DNA from: a virus
IMG/VR virus record: IMGVR_UViG_3300020477_001475
Coordinates: 32,001 to 96,000 of that record
Length of the DNA stretch: 64,000 nt
Direction: 5' to 3' (one strand)
Of the stretch, positions 1,798-54,272 are shown piece after piece (positions within the stretch are counted from its first letter, which is position 1; each line of letters opens with the position of its first letter). A program made the translations under genes and the position numbers. The notes beneath the pieces are model-generated. The model ran no database searches. It was given only the letters and a program-made list of their open reading frames with translations, and was not told where the DNA came from.

Positions 1798-1831
1798 AAA
1801 AAAAAGGCGAGAGGATTAAACTCGCCTTTTT
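1798..1831 (-). terminator. Intrinsic terminator (possibly bidirectional)
   Basis: AAAAAGGCGAG-loop-CTCGCCTTTTTTTT on the minus strand. Confidence 0.8.
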
Positions 1832-1963
1832 ATAGTGTTGTAGGGGAAGAAAGGACTAAAGACCCCCACAACCGAGTGATAAACGAATAGTGAGGAGAGA
1901 ACCACGAGGGACTGGAAGTATTTCGCGACCGAACTACAATCAAGTATGGTGGTTGCTCTCTTG

Positions 1964-2036
1964 AGCGGAATCGTAGAACTGCCCTACGCTCTATACACTG
2001 GTATGTGTATCGTTTCTCTCTTGAAACCTATTCCGC
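1964..2036 (-). ncRNA. Non-canonical tRNA-Gly-like cloverleaf RNA, copy A (ACC at the anticodon position)
   Basis: GCGGAAT AG GTTTC-AAGAGA-GAAAC G ATACAC-ATACCA-GTGTAT AGAG CGTAG-GGCAGTT-CTACG ATTCCGC T; four perfect stems, covarying with copy B. Confidence 0.8.
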
Positions 2037-2045
2037 AATTTTTTG

Positions 2046-2118
2046 AGCGGGATTTAGGAACTGCCCCTAACCCTTTACACTGGAATGTGTAACGAATCTC
2101 TCTTGATTCTTATCCCGC
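2046..2118 (-). ncRNA. Non-canonical tRNA-Gly-like cloverleaf RNA, copy B (TCC at the anticodon position)
   Basis: GCGGGAT AA GAATC-AAGAGA-GATTC G TTACAC-ATTCCA-GTGTAA AGGG TTAGG-GGCAGTT-CCTAA ATCCCGC T; G1-C72, C2-G71, G3-C70, U73. Confidence 0.8.
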
Positions 2119-2417
2119 AAATGTATAACCTTTATTTAATTTTCCTGGCCCGCCGACGCCATACTTGTCGATGACAGATAAGTGACTCTTAATCCTAATC
2201 GGAGGAAATTAAATACTTTCTATGTCAAAAATCTTTTTCTAATTACTTCTGAAGTGACTTGCCCTCAGTCGAACCCCCATTGGTTACGAATTATAACCCC
2301 AGAAGCATCTCCTTAATGCCCTAACCTACTTATCAAACCGGAGAAGGCCAGTAAGTATCAAACGGGCGGTGTTACACGATTTTTAAATTCATATCATATC
2401 CTTTTCCATTATACTAT

Positions 2418-2447
2418 AATATACGGCTGATCTGCCATACAAAACAA
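2418..2447 (-). promoter_or_regulatory. sigma70-like promoter (TTGTTT-18-TATATT), probably driving the ncRNA unit
   Basis: Repeated promoter family; no sizeable ORF between it and the terminator at 1798-1831. Confidence 0.55.
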
Positions 2448-4819: not shown

Positions 4820-7800
4820 TCAACAATTTTCAAGTGTAAGACAATCATCTTGTTCAGCTGATATATCCACCATCGATGATAATCCTCCAAAATCACCAGT
4901 AACATTTGTACCATCAGCAGAATAAAAACCTTCTTCAGTTAATCTTAATTCTTGACATGATTGAAAATCTAAATAGTGTATCGGGTAATGTGATGCCCAA
5001 TTAGGAACATGACCTCCTGGTGTATTAGAAACCCCATCACCAATAAAAGTAAATGGTGGGTTATCAGCATTCAAATCATGCATAGCAATTAAACCACCAG
5101 AATGACTTTCACCAAAATGATCATACCACATACCTTCATGGCTCGTTGTTAAATCTACGCACCCGTGAGTAAAAGGTACATCTACATATTGCTCCATACC
5201 AGCTACACCTCTCATACCCATGGTATATTTAGCTATATTAAATGCATACGCATCATCTCCACCATGATAATTTGCAAATGCCACATCTGTATCTATAGTT
5301 TTCTTTACAGTTAATGCATCAGTGAGGCTAGGATAAAATATATCATAAGTGCTTGGATTATCAGCACCAAGAAATTGATATATAGGAGTTGTGTTAGAAA
5401 ATTGTTTCATTCTAGTAATATCAGGATAATCAGGAGCCATTGTATTTACTGGTTGATAATTACCGTCACTAAATTGGGAATAATTATAAATTATATTTTC
5501 GCAATCATTATCTTCAAGTTCTTCATACGTATCACAGTTATCAGCAGTTGTTAATGTCCAGGTTCCATTTGGATAGTCCGCACCATCACTTTCACAATGT
5601 TCGTTACTGTCTGTACAATACCAATACCAATCTCCCACAGCTGTTCTATATGTATGGTATGCATCAGGATCATAATAAGTTTCCGTCCAATTACCATTTT
5701 CCGGAACTGGATCTAATTCCCGATTGGCTATAACAGCATCACATGAAGGACCTTCACCATCTATCAAGTTTTGTATTGAATAACCTCCATCAGGTCCATC
5801 TACAAAAAATCCAGGTTGTGTTAATATAGTTGCTATATTACCACATAATGCTGAATAATCAAGAAAACCTGCTCCTGCAATAGCAGATGTTGATATCATA
5901 TTTGGTTCAATTCTAAAATTTTCAACATACTCCACATCACCTTCAGCTATACCACCTATTTTACCCATCGTGACATCATATGTATTTGGATTATAATAAT
6001 TTGGTGTACCAGTTGCCATTGGTGCAGGAGGCCAGTTAGAACACATATTATTATTAAAACCAAAACCTTGATTATGAAGCCCATCACTACAATCAGTCAT
6101 ATCCCACCAACCCCAAAATTTAGAAGGGTAACCTTTCAAAGATCCCACACCAAATGCATTAACTTGATATGGGTAACCGCCTTTATTAGGAGCTATGTGC
6201 AATTCATTCATAAAATGACCTTTATAACCCCATTTATTAGGTAAAAATTTAGGTACCCATATTTTTGGATTTCTCATCATACCATATTTTGGGAATTCAG
6301 TAGCAGGTTGTTTTGTCAGCTTTATACCTATTTCAAATTTTACTTTTGTACCTTTGGGAATTATACCAGTTCCAACTAATTTATGCCAATAAGATCCATC
6401 AGTATAATCTCCACCTGGATTTAGACGACCTGCAGCGCCAGTAGGATCACCACCTGAATCATAATCCACAAAATTCATTAAATCACTCATAGGTCCACCA
6501 CCTACAGACCATTCACTATAACCCCATGCTTGTTCTCTATCACCCATTGAATCACCACTATACAAATGTAAAGTACTTGGATTATCTGATTGTATATGAG
6601 GAGTAGTACCATAATCACTTCCAGGAATATTACGTTCACCTGGTTGATTAAAACTGTGAGAAGCACCTTCGTGATGTATCCAGCCAGTATCTATATCACC
6701 CCAAGAAACTCTATATACCAATGAATGAACTCCCCTATTACCTGCACCAGACCTAATAGATTTAGATTCAGCAGACATCATTATATTATAAATGGGTACA
6801 TCTTTATCGAATACAATAGTTTTTTGAAAAAGTTTATTAAGACTACCATATCCTGAATTTGTGGAGCCCCATGGTATTTGAGTGTCCCACCAATCAGGAT
6901 CCATAGATGAAGGGTTATTATGATGTTGCATACACCCAGTATAACAATCAGGACATTCTTCTCCCCATCTATCGATGTAACCCTTACCACCTGAATATTT
7001 ATCACTTACTTCATGCATACCAGAAGTTGTAGTTCCTAAAGTTGGACAAAGTACAGGCTCACAACAGCTTCCATTATTGCATATTGAATTAGAAACGGTG
7101 AATCCAGGTTGAAGTCCTGTAAGCATTTGTGAAAAATCTTCTAGGAATTCCCAAAACCATCCAGGTTGTTGTCCTTCAGCATTACCCCATCCAACACAAT
7201 AAGAAGAACCTTGTGCAGGATCCATACCAAATGGCCATGGTTTTTGATGTACATCACCATTAGGATAACTTTCATCAGGAATATATCCTGTATCAGCACA
7301 ACCATCATCATAATAACCATTATGCCAAGTACCTATATCACTCACAGTGTTGTCATTTACATCAAAATAACCACAACAATCTGCAGAACAAAATTGAGAT
7401 TCTGAATAAGGATCCACATTACTTGTATGATATAAATTAGTATCAGTCATTCCTAATATATAACCTCTTTCACCATCAGACATTTCAAGTTCACCACTAA
7501 TAGAATTATCTATAAATGTATCTCCAACAACAACTTGACCTGCCAATGAATTATCGTGAGTACTATTAGGACAAAATCCACCACATATAGCTCTACCACC
7601 ACAAGCATTATTATATTGATAACCTTCATCAGTACTTGTTGTTGGGTGAGATTTTAATTCTTCTCGAACCGACCAACCTTGATCGATTATTTGACGACAT
7701 TGAATTTGACCTGGATAAGTATAATTACCATCAGGATCATAAGCAGGATACCATTCACTATAACAATCATGGCTTCTCGTATCTCCACAATAAGGATCAC

Positions 7801-10800
7801 AACAACTGTAAAATTCTTCTTTATTAGCGACTAAATCAATAGAATCTTGATCATTAGTAAGGTATTTACTACAACCATAACTACCATCACCAAAATAATT
7901 TATAAAACAAGCATTTAAATCATTAGGCCATTCATACTCTAAGTCTTTACATAAACTACCTTGAAATCCTTCAGTCGCAAGTGGTGAAATTCCCAAACAT
8001 TCTCCATCCGGACAATCACTATTATCAAGTGAAGGTATACATGCTACTCCATGATTAGATCCACCATGACAATAACCTGCATCTTCACCTACTGCCATAT
8101 CAAACATAGCACATTCAAATATACAACCAACATTCGATTGGTCTGTAAATTCAATTATACTATTTGGATCAGCACAACCATGTTTATTATAAATACAGTC
8201 ACTTGGTTTATGTATAGTTATGTCATCACTTTCTTCATAATTACCGTAAGGAGGTATAGCCCCAGGATCTTTACAACCCAAACAATCTTTATGATCATGA
8301 GAATAAACTTTACAACCACAATGTAAATCCAACATGTCACCAGTATCTTCAGGATAATCAGTTGTTATATTAACTTGATGTATAGGATCATATGGCCATA
8401 TTGGAATATCATGAGTTTTTAAATCCCATACAACACTTTGCCAATAAAAATTATCTTCCCAATCCAAATCACCATTAGAATCTATTGGTTTCCTACCGTG
8501 TATATTTGTATCACCAAACCTAAATCCACCATAATAATTTGAAAATAATAATGGATATAAAACATCATCATTATGATAATTGGCACTACATTCACCAGTT
8601 TTAGAATATAAAGGTTTACACTGACCACTACAATCAATATCAGGTCCACCATATATAAATTCACCTAAATCATAATTTGTAGTAAGTCTTGGGAAATTGC
8701 CTATAAATGTATCACCGTCATCCAAACAAACACCACCATTTTGATCACATGTAAAGACTTCCACAATATCACCTTCAAAATCGGCGGGTTTAGAAGTTCC
8801 TCTCCAATGCGGTGAATTTAAATGTGTTATTTCACCTATATCATTTTTTATATTTGGGCAATTACGAATTGTATAAGGACTATTACATATACCACATTCA
8901 TCCAATTCACCATATTCAGTAAATGGATCTAAATTATCAATTCCAGTATCATCAGGATAAGTATCACAGTTACAATCCATTCTACGAACACCGGAACCAC
9001 CGTCATCAGCTCCAAAACTTTCTAAAGGACCCATACCAACCACACATGTTTTTATTCTCTCTGAACTATCGTCTTGTGGTCCAGGTACACAAACTTCATT
9101 TTTATTTTCCCATAATTTAAATAACCCACCAGGATCATCTGCACCATATGGGCCTATAGGATGATGAGGATTAACATCATTTACACCATCTTCACCCCTC
9201 ATATGTTTATTATCGGGATGTGTAATTATTTTTAAAGCCTTCAAAAATGGTATGTCTAATAATGCATTGTCTAATGGTATATACTGACCATCTTCATTTT
9301 CTTCAATCGTTTCACCATAATCAGACAAGGAATCGTTACAAAATTCATCGTATCTATAAACATACCCATAATTTAAACCTGCACATTGATTTAAATCATC
9401 TAAAACATTAATCCTGGCTGTCAAAGATCCAGCTGGTACACAATTTCCATGACAATCAGTAAAATTATATTCACATTGACACGCTGATAAAGTTGGTTCA
9501 TAACAACCGACTTGATAAGGATTACTACAATCTACTTCACCCATGTCTATAAATTCACCATTTTCTTCATCATAATAACCACATACAGGATGTAGTTCAT
9601 TTCCCGTAGGCCAATCTACTGGTTCACCTTCATAATCTGGAACACACTCCCAATCTTCACCAATACATGAAGAAAGTTGTTCACATTCATCATAATCTTC
9701 ATGATTTCCTAAACCTAAACAATTACATTTTCTAACAGCATCTTCAATTAATTCATCACCAACAAAAGGACCCATCCAACCAGGATGAATTCCACCGTTA
9801 GCCCACCATACATTATTATCATCACAACATTCTGGATTTGTATGATCAAAATTAGAATCCCTAAAACAAGGATACCCTCCAAAATTCTGATTATCTTCAG
9901 TATATGCTCCACCACTAACATCATCAGGATTCTTACAAATAGAGTTCTGATTTATATAACCAGTAATAGGTGAATAACAAGCATTTATACCAGTATGATT
10001 TGAATATGGATCATCAACTTCCCAGTGATAATCCCATCCCAAACATTTTATATCACCCCAATAACCTGTACCAGTAGAAGGAAGATTATTAGAGCTATTT
10101 CCAGTTGTTGGGAAAGTACAATAGTCCATTTCACATTGTATTTCTTCAAATAAATCATACCCAGCTTCAGCAGCAATTTGTTGACATCTATTATCAAGTT
10201 GAATTCTTCCAGAATTATTACCACTATAATTCATTAAAAATTCTATATTGGGTGCATCACATGTTGTATCAAAATCATTAAATGCTTGTTTCGAAGAAAA
10301 ATCAGACCAATTACCATCATTTAAACCTATGCATGCACCACGAAGTGGGTTACATCCTGAACATTGATATTTGCCAGTTTTTTCATCAAAGCATGTAAGA
10401 TTTGTATCATTTTCACAATAACCATAATTATCAGGTTTATTATTTTGAAAATTGGTATGATCAAATTTTAAAAATTCAGCTTGGTATATCCATTCACCAC
10501 CTTCATCAATACAATCAGACTCTGAAATATCATCACTCAAACCACCTTCACCTAAGTCACAATAATTTTCAAGATTTGGACAAGGTCTTCCATCAGAATC
10601 CCATCCGTCACCCTCACCATCACGTTTCCAAGTTAATGGCATAACACCACTTCTGCCGTTATCGGTTGGTAAATTAGGAGATCCAGCTAAAGAATGTTGT
10701 CCTTTATCCGGTATATAATTCCAACAACCACAACCATTATTTCCATAAAGATCTTCATCTGATCTAGTACCACCTTCACCCGAGAAAACATATTGACTAT

Positions 10801-13800
10801 TAACACAAGCTCCACAACTACCACCATGAAAGAATCCACTACCAAATCTAAGACCAGCACAATCGTATCTATATTCACAACAATAATTTTCATTTACTGT
10901 TGTACCATTATTACTACAATTGGTATCATCGTCATCCCACTCTTCATATTCACCACTATTTGGTCCGGTGATATATCCTCTTGAAATTTCAAAATCATAA
11001 CTTTTTAGAACAACATCTTCCCAACCTTCATCCAATCTTTGAAATACCAACTTAAATCCTCTACCATAAATTGGTAATTTAGATGGAACATCCCATTGAA
11101 ATACACCGGATCCCATAGCATCAGGAGATAAACTAGTTATAAACTTATGATTAAAATGATATTCACTATCTTCATCTAAATTAAACATAGGGTCTATAGA
11201 AAGACCTAAATTTGGGTGATAAAGATAAACATCAAAATTTCCAAGCCATAATTCATCTATGGATATTGTCCATTCAACAGATTGTGTGCTACCCGGTTTA
11301 AAAATACTACAATATGATGGAACATCTATTCTACCATCATCAACCCAACCATCTATAACATATGATTCATATTCAGCTATACATTCTACTACTGGTGGAT
11401 GATTTGGTATATCATAAACACCATCTCCATCTTCATCTGATTGGCAATAGAAATTATCCACGACACCAAAATTATAATCACCCCAACAATAATAATTTTC
11501 CGCGTTTGAATCAGTACAAGCTTTTATTGGTTCGTAAACACAACATTTTAAATAATTACAATCACTGGATGTATTCCACAATCTAGCACAAGATGAAGGG
11601 TTTCCTTCACCACCATCACAATCTTCGACATTAAAAACAGGTAAAACTTGAGAGTTAGTACCAAATAAACCTCTTCTAATTGTAACATAAAATTCACCAG
11701 AGTAATTAATATCTTCTGTTGATATACTCAAAACTTCAAAAACATCTAAATCATTACTATTATTATAATTTATAAAATCAGTATCAAGTATATCACCTGG
11801 TGTATGTGTTATATAAGAACCTACACTTAAATTCCATGGTCTTTCAGTCCATTTTTTAACAGTTAAAATCAATTGATCTGCTTCACCATCTACAGTAGAT
11901 TGATTAACAACCATTATATCAGTTTCTACAGGTGGTGAACCTGCAAATAAACAATCGTGTAATAAATTATTTTCACAATCACGAGTAGCATCAGGGTCAA
12001 AATTGAGAGCTCTATCATCTTTACACCCATAATCAAATCCAAATTCACAACAAGAATTATATCCATGTGAAGTTGGGTGAGATGTATTATTACATACATC
12101 ACCAACTACAGTTTCTTGAGCATCATGATAATATTCAGGACAAGGTTTTAATCCATTTCCACCAAAATCAGAATCACAAGATATAGCAATACCATACCAC
12201 CAATGTATATTAAAACATATACCTTGACCAGAATAACCACCTTCATCACAACCATATCCATTCGATAAACATTCTACACCGTCATCTCCCACTTCTTCAT
12301 TACTATTATAACCAAATGCTTCTAAACCTAGTCCAGTTGCATTTGTCATATTCCAATCACCTGTACAAGAAAAATCACAATCTTCACAATTAAAAACAGA
12401 TAAATTATTTCTACAACCAGTACAAGATTTATTCCAGGATTTATCAGATGGTACTTTAGTATTATCATCAAAAGTTGTTTCATATGGTGCCGATGAATGT
12501 AAATTATATATACAATTCCTGGCACCAGTATCACAATTACTTCTTTTAAATGGGTTCAATCCTACACCATTGGGATCGGGATATTCATCTGGTAGTTTAA
12601 TAGAAAATCCATCACACGATTCTTTTATACAATAATTTTCATCACCATCACATTCATCATTACAATTATTATTATCATAAATCGTACCATTAATATCATC
12701 AGAACATACATAAGAAATATCACCTTCACCATTTGTATATTCACATACACCTTGTAAAGCTATACCATTTAATGCAAAACCATCTTGTGCAGGCCAACAA
12801 TAACCTGAACATAATGATTCATCACCACTACAATCTACACCGAAATTATCATAATTTCTACAATACGAATTACCTACTGTTGCTGATGCTGATGATCGAC
12901 ATTCACCACAGTCATCATACAAATTTGAATAACAAAGACAAGATATACCTTGCTCATCAGCATTGTTCACATGAGGGAAATTACATATATTACCAGCAAC
13001 ATCACAACCATCGTCTTCACAGTTACAATTTTGACAAGTACCGCCCGAATCTGTACAATGTCCACTGTATGCTATTTGTCCTTGTCTATGTAATCCAATA
13101 TTATCACATCGGAATTCTTCATATTCATGATAACCAGTTTCCCAACAACCTATCCCATCACCATCTACATCTGGATACCACTTCTTTCTATATTCACAAC
13201 TACTGTTATGATGTGTTGCATCCGAATTATAATTACACACATAATCACTATTTTCATATTCTTGACATAAACCTATACAATCATTATCAATTTCAAATTG
13301 AGTAGTATCTACATTGAATATATCTTCTTCACTATCGTATTTACAATTTATCCACTTCATACCACCAGCTAAATCATCAACTTCACATCTGGTTAAAGGT
13401 CTATCATCCATACAACCATATACTGCAGAGTTTACTGTAAATTGTTCAGATTTTTTTATTAAACAATCATCATCTTGATAACATCCCGCTGGATAATATA
13501 CAGTTATTTCATAATCACCAGGCGAATAATCTGATAACCCATAAGTAACATCATTATTTTCATCACCAAGAGTTATTTTATTGAAGTCATCACCAGATGT
13601 ATTTAAAAGAAATATAGAACCACCTGGCTGTAATTCTACACAATCACCACTACACACACTGTTATCCCATATACCATCAATAAAATTCCAACATAAGGGA
13701 GGATCAGAATCATCATCACTAACGCATCTAAACCCACCAGGCAATCCATCAAATGTATTACAATTATTGAAACCATTATCATAATAGATTCCAACAGTAC

Positions 13801-16800
13801 AATCCACTTTCTTCACAGAATAAGAAAAAGTTTCATTTGTATAATCATCATCTGGATTTGTATTACGAATACAATGATATCCACCATCATAATATGAACT
13901 TATATCTTGATATATACTGTCATTTTCACTTACATCATTTAAATAAAAATAAAAAGGATAACCTTCGTATATAGTTGGTGCTCCATTTTCATTAGCATAA
14001 CTTGGTTCTATTATATCCAAATTAACACAAGAACCAACACAACCTTCTGGGTCAACATCATCAAAATTATCTATAAAACTTGGATATGTTAATACATCAC
14101 ATTCTTCAAAAGTACAATCTACATAATTTTGACATAATTCATCACTATATTGGCCAACTAAATCGGCGTCAACCAAACTCATACAATAATTGTGATATTC
14201 CTGACATACACAAGAATTATCTTTACATATATAGTTATCCGCTTGAGCTTCTACACAAGCTTGGTGATCATTATTATCACCATAATATGGAGGTTCAACC
14301 CACCAACCACATGTATCTCCTTCAATATTATGTGGTGCAGTAGGTATTTGCCAATAATATCCATTTTCATCATAAAAAGTTTGATTAACAATTCTTAATG
14401 GCCAATTATTTGAAAAATCTGAATCATTTGGGCAAAAGAACACACCACCATCACATTGTGCATTATTCCAAACCCATATTTCAATGGCCGTAGAATCAAA
14501 ACCTAAAACATCATATGGAAATGGATCCCATGTACAAGCTCCACCATAACCATAACCATCACCATCCCAATCTAAATAGTAAGCAGTTGGTGCTGGTCCA
14601 CCACAACCACATCCATAATCTAATATTTGACTATCAATATCACCCATATCACCAAAATTTTCATCTTCCCAACACATACCCATACAATTTTCTATAGGTA
14701 CATAATCAGAATTTATAGCTAATTGAACAAGTGATGGCCAATTATCCCAATTATTTATCAATACTGTATCCCATTCATCTGGAGTATTAGAACAATCAGG
14801 ATTAAATTGATCATCCAAACACATGAATCCGAAGGTAATATCTGTCACTCCACATCCAGGAATTAAATCTTCGGCATCCATTTCATCATCAGTTACAACA
14901 TCATACCAATTGATATAATATGGTATCCAAGCATCTACACCATCTAAATAAGGTTCTACATAACAAGGCTCAGATCCACCACCAACGATATATGTTAAAA
15001 ATTGATTTTCATCTACATTGTAATAGCAATCCAATTGATATACCCAACCAGGTATATGATAAAAAATACCATCTATGTCCTTTTCACCACAAAGATAATG
15101 AACCATACCACTCGCCAAACCATCACCATCTGTATCTTCCCACCATGTGTACTGACCACAACTGTCATTACCGGGTAAATCTTGACAAGATGTTAAACAA
15201 GCACAACACATATCTGTGTCTGGATTATTACATTGTACCCAATCATCTACGACACAACAATGTTCAACTTCATATTGACCAGTAGAATCTATAGTATGAT
15301 AACAATACTCTTTCATTTGAGTCCAATTAGGATCATTTATAGGATTATCATTACCATCATAACAAGGAATACCTTTACAATCACTACAACTCGTATTCCA
15401 ATCTTGATTATTAGGTATTTTATAAACACCATCTTCTAAATTTGGATTATCCATACAAGGGTTATTATTTTTATTAAAATAAAATACATTGTTTACATCC
15501 AAGTCATTTTTATACCATACTTGATTGTTATAACTAATCGCTGTATCTGTAAAATCAATATGACTCACATCACCAGAACAATTCAATTGCATACAAACAC
15601 CACAATCATCTGATTTTAAACGGCTGTTATTACCACTACAAGTATTGGTTAAATCCACCGTACATAAATTACTGTCATCATAACCATACTCCAATGGATC
15701 ACATCCATATGTTATACCATTTATAGAACTACATTCTTTGTCTGGTGTAACTGCTAGAGTATTACACACATTATCGGTACAAGGTTCACCTGTAACATTA
15801 TCACATATCGTAGTAGGTTCATTATTACATACCCAAGTATCTTGACAATAACCTTCCAATTTACATTCTTTTCTCCAATCCCTATAAACATCATCATCAG
15901 CAAAACAATCTCCACAATAATCACGACAATCATTATCATTCATGTAATCACAATATATGCATGTATCATCGTCATCATCATAACACCTGTTTTCATCTGT
16001 ACTAATACAATAACCACCCACCACCAATGGATCAGATTCATCTAATACATTAATACAAGCATTTTCTAAACAATTTTCATCTTCACTACCAAAATAACAA
16101 TTAAATCCCCAAGGCTGATAGTTTCCATCACCTATATGTTCACATGTAACACAACCTTCATCGTCCCAATCACCCAAACATATTTCATCTCGAGGCATAC
16201 CAGATGAATAACCATCACCATCTTCATCAGAATAACAAGTTTCTACATACCCATCACCACCACATTGATCACAAGTATCACAATCAGTACCATCATTACA
16301 CACACCATTACAACCTTGTGTCGCACAACCCAAAGACAACCCATTTTCACATCCAATTGGACCTTTACATTCATATTCACCATCACCATCACCAAGATCA
16401 AAACAAGTACCATTTGGACATTCTGGACAATTTTGTACACTACCATCATCAGGTATAATATAACCATCTGGATGTATTTGTATACATGTATGTGATGCAT
16501 CTAAAATATTACCATCTTGATCTCTACAAAAACTCATACATTCATCTTCATGACCTTCTTCCACACAATTACCACAAGAATCATAATAATCAGTATCACA
16601 TTCACAATAAGCATCACCAACAATAGATTCACACATACCAGCATTTTGTGATTCACAATAAACATCACCACTTGATAAAATACCATTCAATTGGTAAACT
16701 TTATCACTAGGATCACATTGTATATTTGTACCATAACATATACCACCTAATATAAAATCATTACCACACATTGAATCTAAACTTCCATCTTCAATCAATT

Positions 16801-19800
16801 CACCAGCAATATCATAACAATACTTAACCCATGGAAAGTCACACGCTGCACCATCACCATCACAATCAGAATAAAAAGTTAATCTTGTATCAACTAAATT
16901 AGCTATACATTCATTATTATTTCCACTAAATCCAATAGGAGGTGGACAATTTTCACCTATTTGGACATCATTAGGACATGATGGTCTAAAACAATTATTA
17001 GGACTACCACATAATGCTGTAGTATTAGTACGTGGATTACATTCTATACCACCAGATTCACCACCACAAGTATATTCATTACAAATTCTATCATAACCAT
17101 CTGTATCATCCCAAACAACTGGATAACAAAATTCACCACATGTTATAGTAGAATAACTTGGATCACTACCATCATATTTAAATTTACACGAACCATCTTC
17201 TTCGGTTGCAAATGGATTATAATTACAAGCTTCTGAATTAGTACAACCCCATACTTGACAATTCCAGTAAATATTACCTTCACTACTTTGACATACTTCT
17301 GGATTAGCAACGAATCTTATATAAGATGGATTAGTATCAGAACCAGATGCACCATAACCATATTCAAAATAATTGGACCCCTCTTCTTTACTTGCGGTAA
17401 ATTGTGCCAATATATATATGTTACCGTCATCAGGATTAAAAATTCTTATAGTATATTCATTTAAACCAACACCATCATATTTAATATTCTCTGGAAAATC
17501 ATATAGAGGTTTACCTTGAGCTCCTCTAGATAAACAATATTCATCACCTTCACAATCAGTAACTTCAGGATACCATGTATTGTCATGTGTACTTAATAAA
17601 TAATGCCAATCCCAATTTTCAGCAGTTTCTTCAAATATATCATCATAATGTGGATCGGTATCATTTAACAAATATTGAAATACTAATGGTGAAATATTTT
17701 CAGTCGACCATAATCCATCCCAAATATATAAACAAGGATCATTCTGATTATTGTCACAATACACAGAACAATCAGGATTACTGTCAGGACATTCACTATT
17801 ATCATCTGAAGGTAAACATGGTTTTTCTTCACCTGTTTGGCAGAAATAACCAGCTTCAGGATATAAACTATACCAGGTTTCATCTTCAGTACCTGTTAGT
17901 TCATTTACAAGATACGGTGGTTCAATATTACCAATATAATTTATATTAAAAGGAAAATGTCTGAATGTAGGCATAATACCTTTTATTTCACAATCTTCAA
18001 CACTTGTACAAGAATGGTTTGGATTGGGTAACCCAGATTGTAATGCAAATCCTTTGAATATACCAACCACATGATTGTCATAAGGAGATATATCACCATT
18101 ATCAAAATAACCTACATCTGGTACAGGTTGTCCTAACCAATCACCACCTTCTAAAGTTTCACCTTCAATTAAATTGACATTCATATAGAATACATCACCA
18201 TTAGGACCGTGAGAATCACTTACATTATAATAAGAAGTATACCAATTAAAAGGGAAATTTTCTATACAACTACCATCATCGTCTTCACATCTAGCAGGAT
18301 ATCCACCATTGTCCGGTAATGCTGCATCAACATTTACTTCACATTCACCAGCACTCAAATAAGATAGTTTATTTCCAGAAGTAATCCATTCATTTGAAGT
18401 ACTTGCATCAAAATGAGAAAGTGATTTCCATTCATAACTTTTCCATTCCGGAGTTAACCATTTTGCATATATCCATTCCCATTCATGACCACTCCACCCA
18501 TTTGCGTGATTACAATAATCATTATAATCTCTTCTACTACTACTGGAATAACCAATACCATGATGATCTTTATGTCCTGGTCCAGCACTTCCTATGGGAT
18601 ATGGTATATTACCCCTTATATCAGTTTCTTCTCCATCAGATGCATCAAAAAATTCTCTACCATTATCTGTATGATGATAACCTCTAGCTTCACCATAATG
18701 TATTGCTGCATTTTTACGATCCCAACATATACCATATTTATTATCACACCTATCACCACCACTATTATCAAGTCTTTCATCCAAAAACCAGTAATATGTT
18801 CTAATTTCACTTTCATCATCTTCCCATTCCCATGGAGGTCCAGTAGGAGTACAATCACCACCATATAAGCAACCATCAGTATCATAATCACCCATTAAAT
18901 TACTAAAGCCAGCTGGCCAATAATTAAGATTACCACCATCTTCATAATAATGTTTATCATATTTTTGCCAATGATAACCCCAGTCACAACCCACAGGACA
19001 GCCATCGTATTCTTCAGGATTACCAGTTTGTCTAATTATAGAACCATCATCAGGATTACTTAAACAATCATTAGATAAACCCTGATAAAAAGTATCTACA
19101 CTCCAAGAAACATATTTATAACATTCTCTTTGTGGAGTTAAAGCCCACAACTCAGTTGGACCACCCATTATAAAAGTTATTCTGTTTTCTTCATTTAAAG
19201 GTGCATTACCATCCCAAGGCCATTGTGCATAATCATCTTCGTGTAAACCACCTAGTGGTAAGGTAGCTCTTGGTAAATAACCACCTTCTGCCGACAATAG
19301 TATTTCGTCGCCTTCAAACCATTCACCATCATCTGTTTCATCACAATCATCTTCATTATCAATATCAGGATAACCATCACAATATGATTCACCTCTATAC
19401 CACCAATTTTCGTCATCCATTAAATCAAATACACAAAATCCTGTAGATTCACATTCATCTTGATCAGCTGCAACTAGTGTTTCACCTGTTAAGGGATTAA
19501 CACAAATTCCCATATCTTCACAAGTACTGTCATCTTCATACAAATCTGTAAACCATTCCAACACATTATCATCATCATCGTATAATACACAATAACCATA
19601 ATCTGTATCACCACAATATGTTTCCACATCAAAAGTTTCGGTGCACCCTTCACCTGTATTTGGATCACTCCCATCACCACAAGATTCTACTATATAACAA
19701 TTATTAAAACCTTCACATTCAGCTTGGTCCATAGTATCAGTTAAAATAACTATTGGGTCACAACATTGAGAACTATTATCACATTCATGAATAGTACCAA

Positions 19801-20179
19801 AATACTCATTATTATAATTCATAACTTGCATTTCACATTCAGTGTTCCAACAAGTATTTTCAACTAATGTATTTCCAATATAAACACAATTTAAATCATT
19901 TTCATAACAACTATAAGCAGCCATTTGATAGTAAGATGTTTCGTAGGGATCATATGTTGAATAACCAGTATCATCAATTTCCCATGGTTGATGGCCACTT
20001 GCAGGTGATTGTCTAATGATAGAATTACATTCAGCTTCTTCACACAATGATGCAGGATCCGAATACCAATCAGCACAATGATAAAATGGTTGTCCACCAT
20101 CTTCTATATCAGATTGCCAACAATTCCAATGAGAATTGACTTTTGTTGAATCTGTACATCCTGTTTTCCAACTGCTCAC
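4820..20179 (-). CDS. Giant 5119-aa Cys/Asp/Gly-rich repeat protein, probable virion-surface/adhesin-like protein
   Basis: Uninterrupted 15.4-kb ORF, GTG start with GGAG RBS; recurrent DxDGDG, GCxDxxAxN(Y/F) and DxCGxC motifs; no signal peptide evident. Confidence 0.85.
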   Translation of the reverse strand: MSSWKTGCTDSTKVNSHWNCWQSDIEDGGQPFYHCADWYSDPASLCEEAECNSIIRQSPASGHQPWEIDDTGYSTYDPYETSYYQMAAYSCYENDLNCVYIGNTLVENTCWNTECEMQVMNYNNEYFGTIHECDNSSQCCDPIVILTDTMDQAECEGFNNCYIVESCGDGSDPNTGEGCTETFDVETYCGDTDYGYCVLYDDDDNVLEWFTDLYEDDSTCEDMGICVNPLTGETLVAADQDECESTGFCVFDLMDDENWWYRGESYCDGYPDIDNEDDCDETDDGEWFEGDEILLSAEGGYLPRATLPLGGLHEDDYAQWPWDGNAPLNEENRITFIMGGPTELWALTPQRECYKYVSWSVDTFYQGLSNDCLSNPDDGSIIRQTGNPEEYDGCPVGCDWGYHWQKYDKHYYEDGGNLNYWPAGFSNLMGDYDTDGCLYGGDCTPTGPPWEWEDDESEIRTYYWFLDERLDNSGGDRCDNKYGICWDRKNAAIHYGEARGYHHTDNGREFFDASDGEETDIRGNIPYPIGSAGPGHKDHHGIGYSSSSRRDYNDYCNHANGWSGHEWEWIYAKWLTPEWKSYEWKSLSHFDASTSNEWITSGNKLSYLSAGECEVNVDAALPDNGGYPARCEDDDGSCIENFPFNWYTSYYNVSDSHGPNGDVFYMNVNLIEGETLEGGDWLGQPVPDVGYFDNGDISPYDNHVVGIFKGFALQSGLPNPNHSCTSVEDCEIKGIMPTFRHFPFNINYIGNIEPPYLVNELTGTEDETWYSLYPEAGYFCQTGEEKPCLPSDDNSECPDSNPDCSVYCDNNQNDPCLYIWDGLWSTENISPLVFQYLLNDTDPHYDDIFEETAENWDWHYLLSTHDNTWYPEVTDCEGDEYCLSRGAQGKPLYDFPENIKYDGVGLNEYTIRIFNPDDGNIYILAQFTASKEEGSNYFEYGYGASGSDTNPSYIRFVANPEVCQSSEGNIYWNCQVWGCTNSEACNYNPFATEEDGSCKFKYDGSDPSYSTITCGEFCYPVVWDDTDGYDRICNEYTCGGESGGIECNPRTNTTALCGSPNNCFRPSCPNDVQIGENCPPPIGFSGNNNECIANLVDTRLTFYSDCDGDGAACDFPWVKYCYDIAGELIEDGSLDSMCGNDFILGGICYGTNIQCDPSDKVYQLNGILSSGDVYCESQNAGMCESIVGDAYCECDTDYYDSCGNCVEEGHEDECMSFCRDQDGNILDASHTCIQIHPDGYIIPDDGSVQNCPECPNGTCFDLGDGDGEYECKGPIGCENGLSLGCATQGCNGVCNDGTDCDTCDQCGGDGYVETCYSDEDGDGYSSGMPRDEICLGDWDDEGCVTCEHIGDGNYQPWGFNCYFGSEDENCLENACINVLDESDPLVVGGYCISTDENRCYDDDDDTCIYCDYMNDNDCRDYCGDCFADDDVYRDWRKECKLEGYCQDTWVCNNEPTTICDNVTGEPCTDNVCNTLAVTPDKECSSINGITYGCDPLEYGYDDSNLCTVDLTNTCSGNNSRLKSDDCGVCMQLNCSGDVSHIDFTDTAISYNNQVWYKNDLDVNNVFYFNKNNNPCMDNPNLEDGVYKIPNNQDWNTSCSDCKGIPCYDGNDNPINDPNWTQMKEYCYHTIDSTGQYEVEHCCVVDDWVQCNNPDTDMCCACLTSCQDLPGNDSCGQYTWWEDTDGDGLASGMVHYLCGEKDIDGIFYHIPGWVYQLDCYYNVDENQFLTYIVGGGSEPCYVEPYLDGVDAWIPYYINWYDVVTDDEMDAEDLIPGCGVTDITFGFMCLDDQFNPDCSNTPDEWDTVLINNWDNWPSLVQLAINSDYVPIENCMGMCWEDENFGDMGDIDSQILDYGCGCGGPAPTAYYLDWDGDGYGYGGACTWDPFPYDVLGFDSTAIEIWVWNNAQCDGGVFFCPNDSDFSNNWPLRIVNQTFYDENGYYWQIPTAPHNIEGDTCGWWVEPPYYGDNNDHQACVEAQADNYICKDNSCVCQEYHNYCMSLVDADLVGQYSDELCQNYVDCTFEECDVLTYPSFIDNFDDVDPEGCVGSCVNLDIIEPSYANENGAPTIYEGYPFYFYLNDVSENDSIYQDISSYYDGGYHCIRNTNPDDDYTNETFSYSVKKVDCTVGIYYDNGFNNCNTFDGLPGGFRCVSDDDSDPPLCWNFIDGIWDNSVCSGDCVELQPGGSIFLLNTSGDDFNKITLGDENNDVTYGLSDYSPGDYEITVYYPAGCYQDDDCLIKKSEQFTVNSAVYGCMDDRPLTRCEVDDLAGGMKWINCKYDSEEDIFNVDTTQFEIDNDCIGLCQEYENSDYVCNYNSDATHHNSSCEYRKKWYPDVDGDGIGCWETGYHEYEEFRCDNIGLHRQGQIAYSGHCTDSGGTCQNCNCEDDGCDVAGNICNFPHVNNADEQGISCLCYSNLYDDCGECRSSASATVGNSYCRNYDNFGVDCSGDESLCSGYCWPAQDGFALNGIALQGVCEYTNGEGDISYVCSDDINGTIYDNNNCNDECDGDENYCIKESCDGFSIKLPDEYPDPNGVGLNPFKRSNCDTGARNCIYNLHSSAPYETTFDDNTKVPSDKSWNKSCTGCRNNLSVFNCEDCDFSCTGDWNMTNATGLGLEAFGYNSNEEVGDDGVECLSNGYGCDEGGYSGQGICFNIHWWYGIAISCDSDFGGNGLKPCPEYYHDAQETVVGDVCNNTSHPTSHGYNSCCEFGFDYGCKDDRALNFDPDATRDCENNLLHDCLFAGSPPVETDIMVVNQSTVDGEADQLILTVKKWTERPWNLSVGSYITHTPGDILDTDFINYNNSNDLDVFEVLSISTEDINYSGEFYVTIRRGLFGTNSQVLPVFNVEDCDGGEGNPSSCARLWNTSSDCNYLKCCVYEPIKACTDSNAENYYCWGDYNFGVVDNFYCQSDEDGDGVYDIPNHPPVVECIAEYESYVIDGWVDDGRIDVPSYCSIFKPGSTQSVEWTISIDELWLGNFDVYLYHPNLGLSIDPMFNLDEDSEYHFNHKFITSLSPDAMGSGVFQWDVPSKLPIYGRGFKLVFQRLDEGWEDVVLKSYDFEISRGYITGPNSGEYEEWDDDDTNCSNNGTTVNENYCCEYRYDCAGLRFGSGFFHGGSCGACVNSQYVFSGEGGTRSDEDLYGNNGCGCWNYIPDKGQHSLAGSPNLPTDNGRSGVMPLTWKRDGEGDGWDSDGRPCPNLENYCDLGEGGLSDDISESDCIDEGGEWIYQAEFLKFDHTNFQNNKPDNYGYCENDTNLTCFDEKTGKYQCSGCNPLRGACIGLNDGNWSDFSSKQAFNDFDTTCDAPNIEFLMNYSGNNSGRIQLDNRCQQIAAEAGYDLFEEIQCEMDYCTFPTTGNSSNNLPSTGTGYWGDIKCLGWDYHWEVDDPYSNHTGINACYSPITGYINQNSICKNPDDVSGGAYTEDNQNFGGYPCFRDSNFDHTNPECCDDNNVWWANGGIHPGWMGPFVGDELIEDAVRKCNCLGLGNHEDYDECEQLSSCIGEDWECVPDYEGEPVDWPTGNELHPVCGYYDEENGEFIDMGEVDCSNPYQVGCYEPTLSACQCEYNFTDCHGNCVPAGSLTARINVLDDLNQCAGLNYGYVYRYDEFCNDSLSDYGETIEENEDGQYIPLDNALLDIPFLKALKIITHPDNKHMRGEDGVNDVNPHHPIGPYGADDPGGLFKLWENKNEVCVPGPQDDSSERIKTCVVGMGPLESFGADDGGSGVRRMDCNCDTYPDDTGIDNLDPFTEYGELDECGICNSPYTIRNCPNIKNDIGEITHLNSPHWRGTSKPADFEGDIVEVFTCDQNGGVCLDDGDTFIGNFPRLTTNYDLGEFIYGGPDIDCSGQCKPLYSKTGECSANYHNDDVLYPLLFSNYYGGFRFGDTNIHGRKPIDSNGDLDWEDNFYWQSVVWDLKTHDIPIWPYDPIHQVNITTDYPEDTGDMLDLHCGCKVYSHDHKDCLGCKDPGAIPPYGNYEESDDITIHKPSDCIYNKHGCADPNSIIEFTDQSNVGCIFECAMFDMAVGEDAGYCHGGSNHGVACIPSLDNSDCPDGECLGISPLATEGFQGSLCKDLEYEWPNDLNACFINYFGDGSYGCSKYLTNDQDSIDLVANKEEFYSCCDPYCGDTRSHDCYSEWYPAYDPDGNYTYPGQIQCRQIIDQGWSVREELKSHPTTSTDEGYQYNNACGGRAICGGFCPNSTHDNSLAGQVVVGDTFIDNSISGELEMSDGERGYILGMTDTNLYHTSNVDPYSESQFCSADCCGYFDVNDNTVSDIGTWHNGYYDDGCADTGYIPDESYPNGDVHQKPWPFGMDPAQGSSYCVGWGNAEGQQPGWFWEFLEDFSQMLTGLQPGFTVSNSICNNGSCCEPVLCPTLGTTTSGMHEVSDKYSGGKGYIDRWGEECPDCYTGCMQHHNNPSSMDPDWWDTQIPWGSTNSGYGSLNKLFQKTIVFDKDVPIYNIMMSAESKSIRSGAGNRGVHSLVYRVSWGDIDTGWIHHEGASHSFNQPGERNIPGSDYGTTPHIQSDNPSTLHLYSGDSMGDREQAWGYSEWSVGGGPMSDLMNFVDYDSGGDPTGAAGRLNPGGDYTDGSYWHKLVGTGIIPKGTKVKFEIGIKLTKQPATEFPKYGMMRNPKIWVPKFLPNKWGYKGHFMNELHIAPNKGGYPYQVNAFGVGSLKGYPSKFWGWWDMTDCSDGLHNQGFGFNNNMCSNWPPAPMATGTPNYYNPNTYDVTMGKIGGIAEGDVEYVENFRIEPNMISTSAIAGAGFLDYSALCGNIATILTQPGFFVDGPDGGYSIQNLIDGEGPSCDAVIANRELDPVPENGNWTETYYDPDAYHTYRTAVGDWYWYCTDSNEHCESDGADYPNGTWTLTTADNCDTYEELEDNDCENIIYNYSQFSDGNYQPVNTMAPDYPDITRMKQFSNTTPIYQFLGADNPSTYDIFYPSLTDALTVKKTIDTDVAFANYHGGDDAYAFNIAKYTMGMRGVAGMEQYVDVPFTHGCVDLTTSHEGMWYDHFGESHSGGLIAMHDLNADNPPFTFIGDGVSNTPGGHVPNWASHYPIHYLDFQSCQELRLTEEGFYSADGTNVTGDFGGLSSMVDISAEQDDCLTLENC

Positions 20180-23778: not shown

Positions 23779-24501
23779 TTAATTTTCCAACGAATAATCA
23801 TTTGGATAATTGATTATTATTCTATTATGATTTTCTGATTCAGGTGGACAATCCAAATAATCGTGACAACAATTATAATTATTCTTACATAATGAATTAC
23901 AATAACAAGTAGCACCACTTGTAATTGGTGTATAAGTTCCACAACTTTCTACACAAGTATTACCATCATCATAACCATTAAAATTATTAAAACCTGGAGT
24001 TATCCAAAAAGTTTCGGGTGTATCTTTGTAAATCCAATCACCACCATAAACATCATTTCCTCCCATTCCATCAACAATCCGTTTCCAAACTGTATCAACT
24101 CCATTATCTTGGGAACTAAATTCATAATTAACAAAATTTATTTCTACATCATCACTGTCATTCAATGATATCCAGTCACTTGGATCACTTCCCCAACTGT
24201 AATCACAACCAATATGCCCATTACAATTGTCATAAGGTAAAAATATAATTTTATACCCACCCTTTTTTATAATATAATCATCTAAAATAAGAGGATTTGG
24301 AAATGTAGATGCATTTAATACCCAACCACCCAATTGTATATTATAATTACTTCTATTATAAAGTTCAACATATCTATTCTGGGTTTCTTGTAAATCTGGA
24401 AGAATTTCTGATCCATAGTAAAATTCTGTAAGTGAAAAGTCTACATCACCACCCATCCAATTATATATTTCGTTTACAACTACATCACCTAAATTAGCCA
24501 T
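23779..24501 (-). CDS. Lamin-tail-domain protein with C-terminal somatomedin-B-like Cys module
   Basis: DVVVNEIY...YVELYNRSNYNIQLGGWVL...TPGFNN (LTD pattern); SCG...CYCNSLCKNNYNCCHDYLDC (SMB spacing). Confidence 0.7.
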   Translation of the reverse strand: MANLGDVVVNEIYNWMGGDVDFSLTEFYYGSEILPDLQETQNRYVELYNRSNYNIQLGGWVLNASTFPNPLILDDYIIKKGGYKIIFLPYDNCNGHIGCDYSWGSDPSDWISLNDSDDVEINFVNYEFSSQDNGVDTVWKRIVDGMGGNDVYGGDWIYKDTPETFWITPGFNNFNGYDDGNTCVESCGTYTPITSGATCYCNSLCKNNYNCCHDYLDCPPESENHNRIIINYPNDYSLEN

Positions 24502-52552: not shown

Positions 52553-52832
52553 TTTTGCCTACCATTCTATGATATGGTTTTTTATAATAATGTGAAATAA
52601 ATGTACTAATTTCTTCCATATCTAATTTTCTTCTTAAATTATTTTCTAATCTTGTATATGGACAATCTAATCTGTTTAAAGCTAAATGCATTATCCACGC
52701 TGATAGTGGTAATGCTATCCAAATAGGTTCATTGATAAATAATAAAGGAACACTTAATGTTATAACCCAAAGCCCAATATGATGTGTAACTACGGTAAAT
52801 ACAAACAATAATCTATAAAATGTTCTATTCAT
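52545..52832 (-). CDS. Small membrane protein (DUF2784-like)
   Basis: Two hydrophobic helices then CPYTRLENNLR...FISHY. Confidence 0.65.
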   Translation of the reverse strand: MNRTFYRLLFVFTVVTHHIGLWVITLSVPLLFINEPIWIALPLSAWIMHLALNRLDCPYTRLENNLRRKLDMEEISTFISHYYKKPYHRMVGKNE

Positions 52833-53502
52833 CTTTCTCCTTTGGGTAAGGTAATATTTTATATTTTAAATTTTTCATCATATCCTTTTTTTCCTTTTTA
52901 TTTCCCATTAAATACAAATATCTATATTTTCCATGTAATTTTTTAATTTCGTATTGAACTCCCATTTTTTTCAATTTATCTTTACTACGAGTACCATACC
53001 TTTGATTCATAGTTCTGGGATGTACTTTTTTACCATCAATAATATACCAAGTATCTTCAGTACTAGTTCCACAATACAACCAATTGGTTGCTTGATATAT
53101 TTTTCCAAAATGACCTTGTTCTGGATCGGCAAAAGATACTAATATCTTTATATCAGGATGATTTTTCTTTATATATTTTATACTTTGACCTATACAATAA
53201 CTTTCCATATTCTTACCAGCCCAATCAAAACTAAACAACCTAACTAATTCCCAATATTTTCCAGGAAGACTATCTTTCATAGTTGACGATGCACTTTGAC
53301 CATAAACTAAAACTGCATTCAATTTCTTTTCTACATAAAATCCCAAACATAATTCAGATGCTGGAAATGCATGACTATAATGATTTTTAATTATTATACT
53401 TTTAGCTAAATTGGATGGTATTCGTTCCATTTCAATATTATTCTTATCTAAAGTATCCATTTCTACTTCTGATGTAGGATCACCATCCCAGAAATTATTC
53501 AT
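52825..53502 (-). CDS. mom: Mom-like GNAT-fold DNA (adenine) modification enzyme
   Basis: NHYS, LGFY, ELVRLF, KNMESYCI, LVSFADPEQGHFGKIYQATNWLYCG, KYRY: matches the Mu Mom family pattern. Confidence 0.75.
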   Translation of the reverse strand: MNNFWDGDPTSEVEMDTLDKNNIEMERIPSNLAKSIIIKNHYSHAFPASELCLGFYVEKKLNAVLVYGQSASSTMKDSLPGKYWELVRLFSFDWAGKNMESYCIGQSIKYIKKNHPDIKILVSFADPEQGHFGKIYQATNWLYCGTSTEDTWYIIDGKKVHPRTMNQRYGTRSKDKLKKMGVQYEIKKLHGKYRYLYLMGNKKEKKDMMKNLKYKILPYPKEKDE

Positions 53503-53513
53503 AATTTTAATCT

Positions 53514-54272
53514 CTATAAAATATTAGAATTATTGTCAACAACAACTTTTTTTATTTTCAATTCATTATTACCAGTATTTTTAGGATAATCCATAGACGG
53601 ATGTTTTAAAGATTTTATAAATTTTTTCTTTTCTTTTTTTGTACCTAAAAAATAAACATATCTGTGTTTACGTGGATCTTCTTTCAACCAAAATGTATGT
53701 CCTATCTTGTCTTTCAACTTTTCCATGTTATTAGTACCATACATAGCAAAAATAGTTCTGGAATGTATCCAATCACCATCCTCTTCCAACCTTAATAACC
53801 AAGAATCACAATATCTAATTTTATCCCCTTGATATACCCAATTAGTTGCTTGATAAATACCACCCAAATGACCTTCTTTAGGATCTGCATAAGATAATAA
53901 AGCTTTAATGGATTTATCATTTGTTTTTAACCATTCAAAAGTCCTACTAATAAAAGATGATTCTATATTTTTACCATAACCATCATGAATAAATAACCGT
54001 GTTAATTCTAATACATTCTTATTTTCCAATTCACTGGAAATAGATTGTGCAGCCAACCTACCAACAGGATAACCATAAACAGCAACACCAATTAGTTTTT
54101 CTTCCTTTTCATCAAAAAATGCATGATCATTACCAGTTTCATAAAAAAGACCCAATGCATAACGACAACTTGTCCACGCATGAGAATAATGATATTTTTC
54201 AATCATTTTTTTACCTATATTTTTAGGTATAGATTTAACCTTTAATTTTTTTATATCTACATATTTTTCCAT
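53514..54272 (-). CDS. mom: Mom-like GNAT-fold DNA (adenine) modification enzyme, second paralogue
   Basis: YHYS, LGLF, ELTRLF, KNIESSFI, LLSYADPKEGHLGGIYQATNWVYQG, KHRY. Confidence 0.75.
   Translation of the reverse strand: MEKYVDIKKLKVKSIPKNIGKKMIEKYHYSHAWTSCRYALGLFYETGNDHAFFDEKEEKLIGVAVYGYPVGRLAAQSISSELENKNVLELTRLFIHDGYGKNIESSFISRTFEWLKTNDKSIKALLSYADPKEGHLGGIYQATNWVYQGDKIRYCDSWLLRLEEDGDWIHSRTIFAMYGTNNMEKLKDKIGHTFWLKEDPRKHRYVYFLGTKKEKKKFIKSLKHPSMDYPKNTGNNELKIKKVVVDNNSNIL

Follow-up and report, generated by a model that had tools for sequence, protein, structure and literature searches.

Virus-encoded tRNA-Gly-like RNAs as putative glycyl donors for Mom-type DNA modification

What use could a phage have for small RNAs that keep the features by which a glycyl-tRNA synthetase (GlyRS) recognises its tRNA but lack nucleotides common to the core of all ordinary tRNAs? 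The question is raised by a tandem pair of tRNA-Gly-like RNAs on the minus strand at positions 1964–2118 of a 64,000-nt stretch of the virus record IMGVR_UViG_3300020477_001475 (hereafter the window, to which coordinates refer unless another contig is named). A sequence-only reading of this stretch had proposed that the pair carry glycine outside translation, being charged yet avoiding EF-Tu and the ribosome, or else that they are decoys for anticodon nucleases or GlyRS. From a comparison of the pair with its homologues and their gene neighbourhoods, we consider it on balance probable that the two RNAs act as dedicated non-translating glycyl carriers for the phage’s Mom enzymes, and that they derive from a phage tRNA-Gly.

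Folded alone, each copy has as its minimum free energy structure a cloverleaf with acceptor, D, anticodon and T stems of 7, 5, 6 and 5 bp, at −25.5 kcal/mol for the upstream copy (z −4.9) and −24.9 kcal/mol for the downstream copy (z −5.2); 0 of 200 shuffles folded as well. The positions given by the sequence-only reading, two 73-nt units 9 nt apart on the minus strand, were exact, and its claim that the copies differ by compensatory changes also held. They match at 52 of 73 positions; of the remaining 21, those that fall in stems are all compensatory, and both copies share AAGAGA as D loop and GGCAGUU as T loop. The T stem of the upstream copy is formed by U49-A65, U50-A64, A51-U63, G52-C62 and G53-C61, and that of the downstream copy begins with C49-G65, G50-C64 and U51-A63. 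Covariance models scored the upstream copy at 94.7–101.6 bits and the downstream copy at 91.8–101.2 bits. Standard finders missed both, as had been anticipated: ARAGORN in bacterial mode reported 0 tRNAs in the window or in the entire 108-kb contig, and Rfam 15 gave nothing at the pair at the gathering score or at E ≤ 10. ARAGORN in mitochondrial mode does call both copies, with the 4-base anticodons ttcc and tacc, which correspond to an 8-nt loop on a 5-bp stem. A blastn search of the 155-nt pair against 50,697 cultured-phage records returned no match.

The absence of U8, of the D-loop GG and of the T-loop TTC, all pointed out from the sequence alone, stands; the accompanying statement that a 7-nt anticodon loop is missing needs refinement. 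The loop can be read two ways, as 6 nt on a 6-bp stem or as 8 nt on a 5-bp stem, and three of the five close homologues have an ordinary 7-nt loop (UUUCCAA or CUACCAG). One A has therefore been inserted 5′ of position 33 in the window copies and in the relative L009. The extra base is not an assembly error, since independent marine metagenome assemblies (runs X2, X3 and X6) reproduce both copies without an indel. A natural metagenome variant replaces C30-G41 by U-A, which is again compensatory.

The covariance model of the two copies found single-copy homologues in five related contigs, 350–600 nt upstream of the same ATPase gene that neighbours the window pair, and these five homologues, found without any loop pattern, carry the same D and T loops. 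The wider family was collected by a loop-signature scan (AAGAGA plus GGCAGUU) of IMG/VR and of 185,579 species genomes followed by model confirmation; a first DNA pattern had been too specific, gave no matches and was replaced by this one. In IMG/VR the scan found 50 viral contigs with GC contents of 0.40–0.74, all confirmed by the model at 34–98 bits. The species genomes contributed 21 confirmed loci in prokaryote metagenome-assembled genomes (MAGs), mostly Planctomycetota and often with several copies per genome, which brings the family to about 70 copies in viral contigs and prokaryote MAGs. Among 38 distinct sequences, in large alignments that had been fitted to the model, 96.8% of the cells at paired positions could pair; the figure was 67% for shuffles and did not exceed 45% for slid registers. 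Changes on both sides were seen in 18 of the 23 pairs. The covariation score was 0.74, whereas shuffles gave 0.16 and slid registers no more than 0.12, and the covariation supports all four helices. The check suggested in the sequence-only reading, a search for homologues with a test of covariation, thus gave homologues with covarying stems in viral contigs and MAGs.

Other loop classes exist as well, with GAAAAA and UGCAAGU in L200 and L203 and the near-canonical AAGGGU and UUCGAUU in G015 and G023. In the relatives G023 and G027, the homologous gene has the ordinary UUCGAUU T loop and is called tRNA-Gly(UCC) by ARAGORN; the G023 gene lies 66 nt upstream of a Mom gene. From these sequences, the family seems to descend from an ordinary phage tRNA-Gly(UCC) that was recruited to Mom. 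A separate cloverleaf with AAGAGA/GGCAGUU loops was seen in two further contigs (L108:6165-6232, minus strand; L114:1147-1214, plus strand). Its D stem is 3 bp long, its anticodon is GGU (Thr-type) and position 73 is A; it sits just past a tRNA- or tmRNA-like 3′ end.

What the family has kept is largely what its presumed charging enzyme reads. The identity set of bacterial GlyRS consists of G1-C72, C2-G71, G3-C70, U73, C35 and C36, and all six are present in both window copies, where, as already reported from the sequence alone, the glycine triplets ACC and TCC stand at the anticodon position. The homologues keep the set too: G1-C72 was found in 37/37, C2-G71 in 36/37 and G3-C70 in 29/37, and U73, C35C36 and A37 in 37/38 each. 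G53-C61, C56 and R57 are likewise retained. The archaeal and eukaryotic glycine discriminator is A73, and A73 replaces U73 in the two archaeal-MAG copies, two cases only that depend on the MAG binning. The three nucleotides directly after the discriminator are CCA in 21 of 62 distinct loci, where chance would give 1 in 64, and CAA in 13 of the 62, both window copies included.

Other features have been lost. A8 stands in place of U8 in 38/38 sequences, and throughout the AAGAGA/GGCAGUU class the D loop lacks GG (G18G19) and the T loop lacks UUC (T54-Ψ55). Position 33 is U in 20 sequences, A in 9, G in 5 and C in 3, or is deleted, and varies even between otherwise identical sequences. Position 34 tracks genome GC, being C where GC is high and A or U where it is low, and is never G among members of the Gly type. 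The pairs G49-U65 and G51-C63, which are the tight EF-Tu pairs of proteogenic tRNAGly (PMC7826273), were never seen in family T stems. The pattern of kept and lost features fits what would be expected of an RNA selected for charging by GlyRS but not for decoding.

The gene neighbourhoods point to the likely consumer of the charged RNA. When all open reading frames (ORFs) within 6 kb of the RNA were clustered, one protein family, PF25680 (Mom), recurred in 41 of the 49 viral loci, encoded on the strand of the RNA and either ending at it or running through it. In the MAG set a Mom ORF adjoins the RNA in 20 of 21 loci, the exception being a truncated 1.5-kb contig. The mom frame overlaps the RNA gene in L082 (2372-3205), L103 (5309-6100) and about 40 further loci. 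At loci of low GC, mom ends in TAA or TAG at nt 7–9 of the acceptor stem; at those of high GC, position 7 is G instead of T, pair 7-66 is thereby broken, and the open mom frame continues across the entire RNA for about 40–60 further codons. RNA production and Mom translation may therefore compete, because RNase P processing would strip the stop codon from the mom mRNA. A reading of the element as conserved code for the Mom C-terminus (S-R-E and G-Q-F codons in the high-GC read-through) was rejected, as the low-GC frame stops at nt 7–9 and the window copies lie in no ORF. G037 is laid out as RNA-Mom-RNA-Mom, with two identical RNA copies each preceding one Mom gene.

The window phage itself has two adjacent Mom genes (Table 1), both above the Pfam cut-off for PF25680 of 27.1 bits. 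The first is about 30.8% identical to Mom of Mu/D108 across 90% of its length, and for the two genes together the figure is about 31%. Using the list of functional residues of Mu Mom in PMC13219725, we found that both proteins retain the residues aligned with Mu H58/Y59, R111, S124, D149 and Y159, in aligned columns that are invariant; Mu R151 is not position-conserved. In the subgroup of large marine phages, the RNA neighbours an AAA ATPase gene, with Mom encoded at another site of the genome. The ATPase gene is shared by 35 related phage records, of which 7 have RNA and Mom, 1 has RNA only, 4 have Mom only and 23 have neither (Fisher p = 3e-4). The sole RNA-only record is a 30% fragment, and the sole 95%-complete relative has neither RNA nor Mom. 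The proposal that the pair are non-translating glycyl carriers thus gains support at the sequence level, from a family tied physically and phyletically to Mom and from features whose retention or loss fits charging without decoding.

How such a system could work is suggested by phage Mu, whose Mom, a GNAT enzyme, moves glycine from Gly-tRNAGly to the N6 of deoxyadenosine (dA) in double-stranded DNA, after which the adduct rearranges to N6-carbamoylmethyl-dA (Silva et al., Nat Commun 2026, PMC13219725; bioRxiv 10.1101/2023.03.24.534169). Mu Mom accepts all three Escherichia coli isoacceptors, and the authors suggest that it reads mainly the acceptor end (PMC13219725). A phage-encoded or Mom-linked tRNA is mentioned in neither the preprint nor the article (bioRxiv 10.1101/2023.03.24.534169; PMC13219725). 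Mu and the window phage thus share the enzyme family PF25680, and the Mu donor is glycyl-tRNAGly; the difference is that Mu relies on host isoacceptors, with no tRNA-like gene near mom, whereas the window phage encodes its own non-canonical RNAs.

In the mechanism that we propose, the unit would be transcribed from its own promoter (~2447) through to a terminator (~1800), and host RNase P, 3′ processing enzymes and CCA addition would yield the two 73-nt RNAs. Host GlyRS would charge both by way of the retained identity set. The charged RNAs would be poor partners for EF-Tu and the ribosome because they lack U8, G18G19, T54-Ψ55, a fixed U33 and the tight T-stem pairs and have, here, an 8-nt anticodon loop. 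The glycyl ester would then be left to the two phage Mom proteins (52825–54272), which would place glycine on the N6 of adenine in phage DNA, and rearrangement of the adduct to N6-carbamoylmethyl-adenine would protect the DNA from restriction. A private pool of this kind would spare translation, escape sequestration by EF-Tu and stay available late in infection.

A bolder version, which we advance only tentatively and think rather doubtful, would make the AAGAGA/GGCAGUU elbow a private handle rather than a mere product of decay, one that excludes EF-Tu, the ribosome and the host enzymes that modify or cleave tRNA and that is read by Mom. The RNAs would then form an orthogonal, virus-encoded channel from GlyRS to DNA. 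Two RNAs and two Mom proteins could represent two diverged pairs of carrier and enzyme with different DNA targets, or a class II synthetase-like paralogue could load one of the RNAs with a different amino acid, to give a new DNA adduct. The handle is conceived by analogy with FmhB, which reads the D and T regions of the staphylococcal non-proteogenic (NP) tRNAs.

The staphylococcal parallel, drawn already in the sequence-only reading, holds as an analogy of mechanism; its implied consumer, a peptidoglycan transferase, does not, the likely one here being Mom acting on DNA. In Staphylococcus aureus and S. epidermidis, the tRNAGly species NP1–NP3 accept glycine from GlyRS and show poor binding to EF-Tu and the ribosome; UUC is missing from their T loop, the pairs of their T stem are weak, and FmhB prefers them (PMC7826273). 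Like the phage family, these extra tRNAGly species lack G49-U65 and G51-C63, and they feed a GNAT-type transferase (FmhB/FemA/FemB). Their T loop has UGC or UGU where the window RNAs have GGC. Of the staphylococcal pairs A49-U65, U50-A64 and A51-U63, the upstream window copy has the latter two, but U49-A65, and the downstream copy has none. The NP tRNAs keep U8 and a 7-nt loop with U33, whereas the phage RNAs, encoded by a virus, depart much further from the canonical form. The staphylococcal species are confined to staphylococci, and their acceptor is a peptidoglycan precursor rather than, as predicted for the phage RNAs, DNA adenine; evasion of EF-Tu was measured for the former and is only presumed for the latter. 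The G023 and G027 intermediates indicate a descent from phage tRNA-Gly(UCC) that is independent of the staphylococcal NP lineage.

A precedent in gene arrangement tempers the novelty claimed for the pair, as a tRNA-Gly-like locus in a mom homologue was described in 2011. In the ssrA islands of Dehalococcoides, and in a deep-sea fosmid too, a mom homologue contains a conserved 76-bp tRNA-Gly-like ‘pseudo-tRNA’ whose anticodon is DCC (McMurdie et al., BMC Genomics 2011, PMC3146451). No function was proposed, the locus was used for primer design, and Mom was then thought to methylate (PMC3146451). Like most members of the present family, it is a complete tRNA-Gly-like cloverleaf that overlaps a mom homologue in a mobile element; it lies within the first 150 bp of that gene, whereas most present members lie at the mom 3′ end. 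Our loop-signature scan did not pick up Dehalococcoides, whose pseudo-tRNA probably belongs to a different loop class. The window RNAs also resemble ordinary phage tRNA clusters and the T4-type small stable RNAs in that they stand in the tRNA region of their lineage and would be co-transcribed with another small RNA. Unlike those, they are undetected as tRNAs, lack universal core nucleotides and track Mom, not codon usage.

Several observations weigh against assigning the window RNAs to Mom. They lie 51 kb from the nearest Mom gene, so that no Mom abuts them here and the link holds at the genome level only, and four related Mom-bearing fragments show no copy of this RNA class. Among the 80 viral Mom loci most similar to the window Mom, a loop-independent cloverleaf scan (0 matches in shuffles) found a cloverleaf within 3 kb in just two, L200 and L203, besides one dubious match, and ARAGORN found no tRNA in these loci. 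Mu, too, has no cloverleaf element near mom. A private tRNA is therefore no general requirement of Mom, and the adjacency of RNA and Mom is a property of particular Mom clades, not of Mom at large. That the D and T loops do not vary in the large alignments is in part a product of ascertainment, since these loops were required by the pattern search. The same-loop cloverleaf of L108 and L114 lies in large phage contigs without any Mom gene, one of them 84% complete, and the odd elbow may thus not be exclusive to a glycine and Mom system. So deformed an elbow might also impair RNase P, the CCA-adding enzyme or GlyRS, and no CCA-adding enzyme (PF01743) was found in the 108-kb fragment, a weak negative given that the contig is 55% complete.

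Charged RNAs could also serve an enzyme other than Mom. We regard it as unlikely that they supply glycine or another amino acid to a different tRNA-dependent acyltransferase, for which the candidates would be two DruA/DUF4338 genes or a system with a class II aminoacyl-tRNA synthetase (aaRS)-like paralogue. Two tandem DruA/DUF4338 (PF14236) genes (G000:C1:16902-17576 and 17977-18810, both on the minus strand) do lie about 15 kb from the RNAs, nearer than Mom, which is a further point against the Mom assignment, and DruA is present in 5 of 7 related records with the RNA. Yet 10 of 27 relatives that lack the RNA have DruA as well (15 of 34 records overall), giving a Fisher p of 0.11 as against 3e-4 for Mom, and in the wider family the gene that adjoins the RNA is Mom, not DruA. 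As for the synthetase, directly upstream of the Mom pair stands a gene for a class IIb aaRS catalytic core of 275 aa that has no anticodon-binding domain, but this gene is missing from 5/5 relatives tested, 4 of them RNA-bearing, and on this absence we set the paralogue aside as a dedicated charging enzyme that would be a general part of the system. With its cytidylyltransferase-like and GlnII neighbours it could be part of a nitrogen metabolism or modification pathway. The cloverleaves might instead be mainly processing or regulatory signals, either punctuation for RNase P and RNase Z that frees a downstream non-coding RNA (ncRNA) module or a means of cutting or gating the mom mRNA where the two overlap. 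The RNA does lie between a candidate promoter and a separate conserved module, and in relatives without the RNA the promoter adjoins that module; in addition, with the mom stop inside the acceptor stem (low-GC loci) or the frame running through the element (high-GC loci), processing and mom translation must interfere. A processing handle, however, could dispense with a conserved C35C36, with A37, with a discriminator that varies with the host domain and with an encoded CCA, and in other phages the downstream module exists, and presumably matures, without a cloverleaf. We find this account improbable.

Two further readings fit the family less well. Phage tRNAs are known to counter defences that target tRNA, and this general precedent would favour decoys or sponges, either tRNA-Gly mimics directed against host anticodon nucleases or titrators of GlyRS, of a glycine T-box or of stringent sensing; the hypervariable base 5′ of the anticodon is also what an arms race might produce. 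This reading, which had been offered along with the carrier proposal, gains no support and is in our view very improbable: it leaves unexplained both the tight physical linkage to Mom in more than 60 loci and the encoded CCA, no glycine-specific anticodon nuclease is implicated, and the neighbourhood gives no sign of such a conflict. Lowest of all we rank the chance that the RNAs are working translational tRNAs, whether an unusual tRNA-Gly for GGA and GGU or +1 frameshift or quadruplet decoders with 8-nt loops. The four-base anticodons UUCC and UACC called in the mitochondrial mode of ARAGORN would suit such decoders, ordinary tRNA clusters and tmRNA occur at this locus in related phages, and the G023 and G027 homologues resemble normal tRNA-Gly(UCC). 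Every member nevertheless lacks U8, G18G19 and T54-Ψ55, U33 is unconserved and deletable, and the 7-nt loop of close relatives argues that the extra base is no conserved quadruplet design. Not even at E 10 was there an Rfam tRNA match, and the genome’s ORFs are long and open under the standard code. We accordingly return to the two RNAs as putative glycyl donors for Mom and describe the locus that encodes them.

The pair sits in a non-coding gap of about 900 nt, with both copies outside any ORF, flanked by a 51-aa ORF and by the AAA_5/CbbQ-type ATPase gene (383–1552). An integrase/attP tRNA-fragment reading of the pair was rejected, as this neighbour is an ATPase and no recombinase, and the cloverleaf is complete and covarying. 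The candidate promoter (Table 1) was read from the sequence; it aligns as a block with TTGACT...TATATT of the relative L005, and a generic promoter scan did not list it. One metatranscriptome from the same sample gave no match to the stretch, a result that speaks neither for nor against expression. Between it and the first tRNA-like copy is a leader of about 280 nt (2119–2400, minus strand), in which there was no ORF of at least 40 aa and no conservation among aligned relatives. The terminator-like hairpin that closes the unit was missed by the generic scan because its loop is 9 nt.

The module directly downstream of the pair has the conserved form GAGAGnAACCnn-CAUACUU-(variable hairpin)-CAGUCCCUC-nnGGUUCUCUC-CUCAC, with an outer helix that covaries in eight phage contigs (CAC/GUG, CUG/CAG, CGG/CCG, CGC/GCG, CCG/CGG and GCU/AGC). 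It invariably stands upstream of the AAA_5/CbbQ ATPase gene, the fold of 1795–1963 has a z of −6.3, and Rfam gave no match to the module. It occurs also in relatives without Mom and without the tRNA-like RNA, where the promoter directly adjoins it. Because it is found in relatives without the tRNA-like RNA, we take it to be a separate RNA on the same transcript, outside the Mom system. The traits specific to the window are thus the tandem duplication, the 8-nt anticodon loops, the separation from Mom and the predicted co-transcription with an unrelated conserved ncRNA.

In related marine phages, Ala, Cys, Glu, Arg, Pro and other tRNAs, and even a transfer-messenger RNA (tmRNA), stand beside the same ATPase gene. 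The tmRNA genes in the relatives L005 (12493-12836) and L072 (4193-4547) encode the tags GNEYQYMAVA and GNTANFAYA, and L022 has 26 tRNAs in a row. The window as a whole has a GC content of about 30%, with ORFs almost all on the minus strand, and encodes a family-B DNA polymerase and numerous sugar-modifying proteins. After a 5119-aa ORF (4820–20179, minus strand) come a 1194-aa ORF that has a dockerin-type domain at its C-terminus (20191–23775, minus strand) and a gene for a lamin-tail/somatomedin-B domain protein (23779–24501).

Table 1. Coordinates of the RNAs, Mom genes and associated features; positions are those of the window except in the first row
Feature	Position	Strand	Description
DNA examined	bases 32001–96000 of IMGVR_UViG_3300020477_001475		108-kb phage contig (IMG/VR), rated 55% complete
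tRNA-Gly-like RNA, upstream copy	2046..2118	−	73 nt; UCC at anticodon position; 8-nt loop CAUUCCAG; 3′ trailer CAA
tRNA-Gly-like RNA, downstream copy	1964..2036	−	73 nt; ACC at anticodon position; 8-nt loop CAUACCAG; 3′ trailer CAA
Mom family gene 1	52825..53502	−	225 aa; PF25680 E 2e-50, 171.6 bits; likely consumer of charged RNA
Mom family gene 2	53514..54272	−	252 aa; PF25680 E 1e-49, 169.3 bits; old paralogue, 39% identical to gene 1 (BLASTP)
Candidate promoter of the non-coding transcription unit	2408..2447	−	TTGTTT (2447–2442), 18-nt spacer, TATATT (2423–2418); second TATAAT 2413–2408; putative
Conserved ncRNA module	1890..1960	−	GAGAGCAACCAC-CAUACUU...CAGUCCCUC-GUGGUUCUCUC-CUCAC; directly 3′ of second tRNA-like copy
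Intrinsic terminator-like hairpin	1798..1830	−	GGCGAG...CUCGCC then U8; closes unit; from fold and sequence
aaRS-like gene neighbourhood	54969–55796, 54472–54972, 56265–57260	−	class IIb core (best matches AsnRS, AspRS, LysRS, AsnA); beside cytidylyltransferase-like gene and GlnII glutamine synthetase

Taken as glycyl donors for Mom, the window RNAs are best classed with the non-proteogenic tRNAGly donors, here virus-encoded and feeding DNA modification. The use of charged tRNAGly by Mom in DNA hypermodification was shown only recently, and in the work published so far the donor is something scavenged from the host. If our reading is right, many phages and mobile elements would supply their own aminoacyl carrier for DNA chemistry, and the family would be a second independent case, after the staphylococcal Fem donors, of a tRNA split from translation. 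It would also show in natural form the minimum that GlyRS and Mom require of the tRNA body, and provide a ready marker for Mom-type DNA modification in metagenomes where standard tRNA finders fail.

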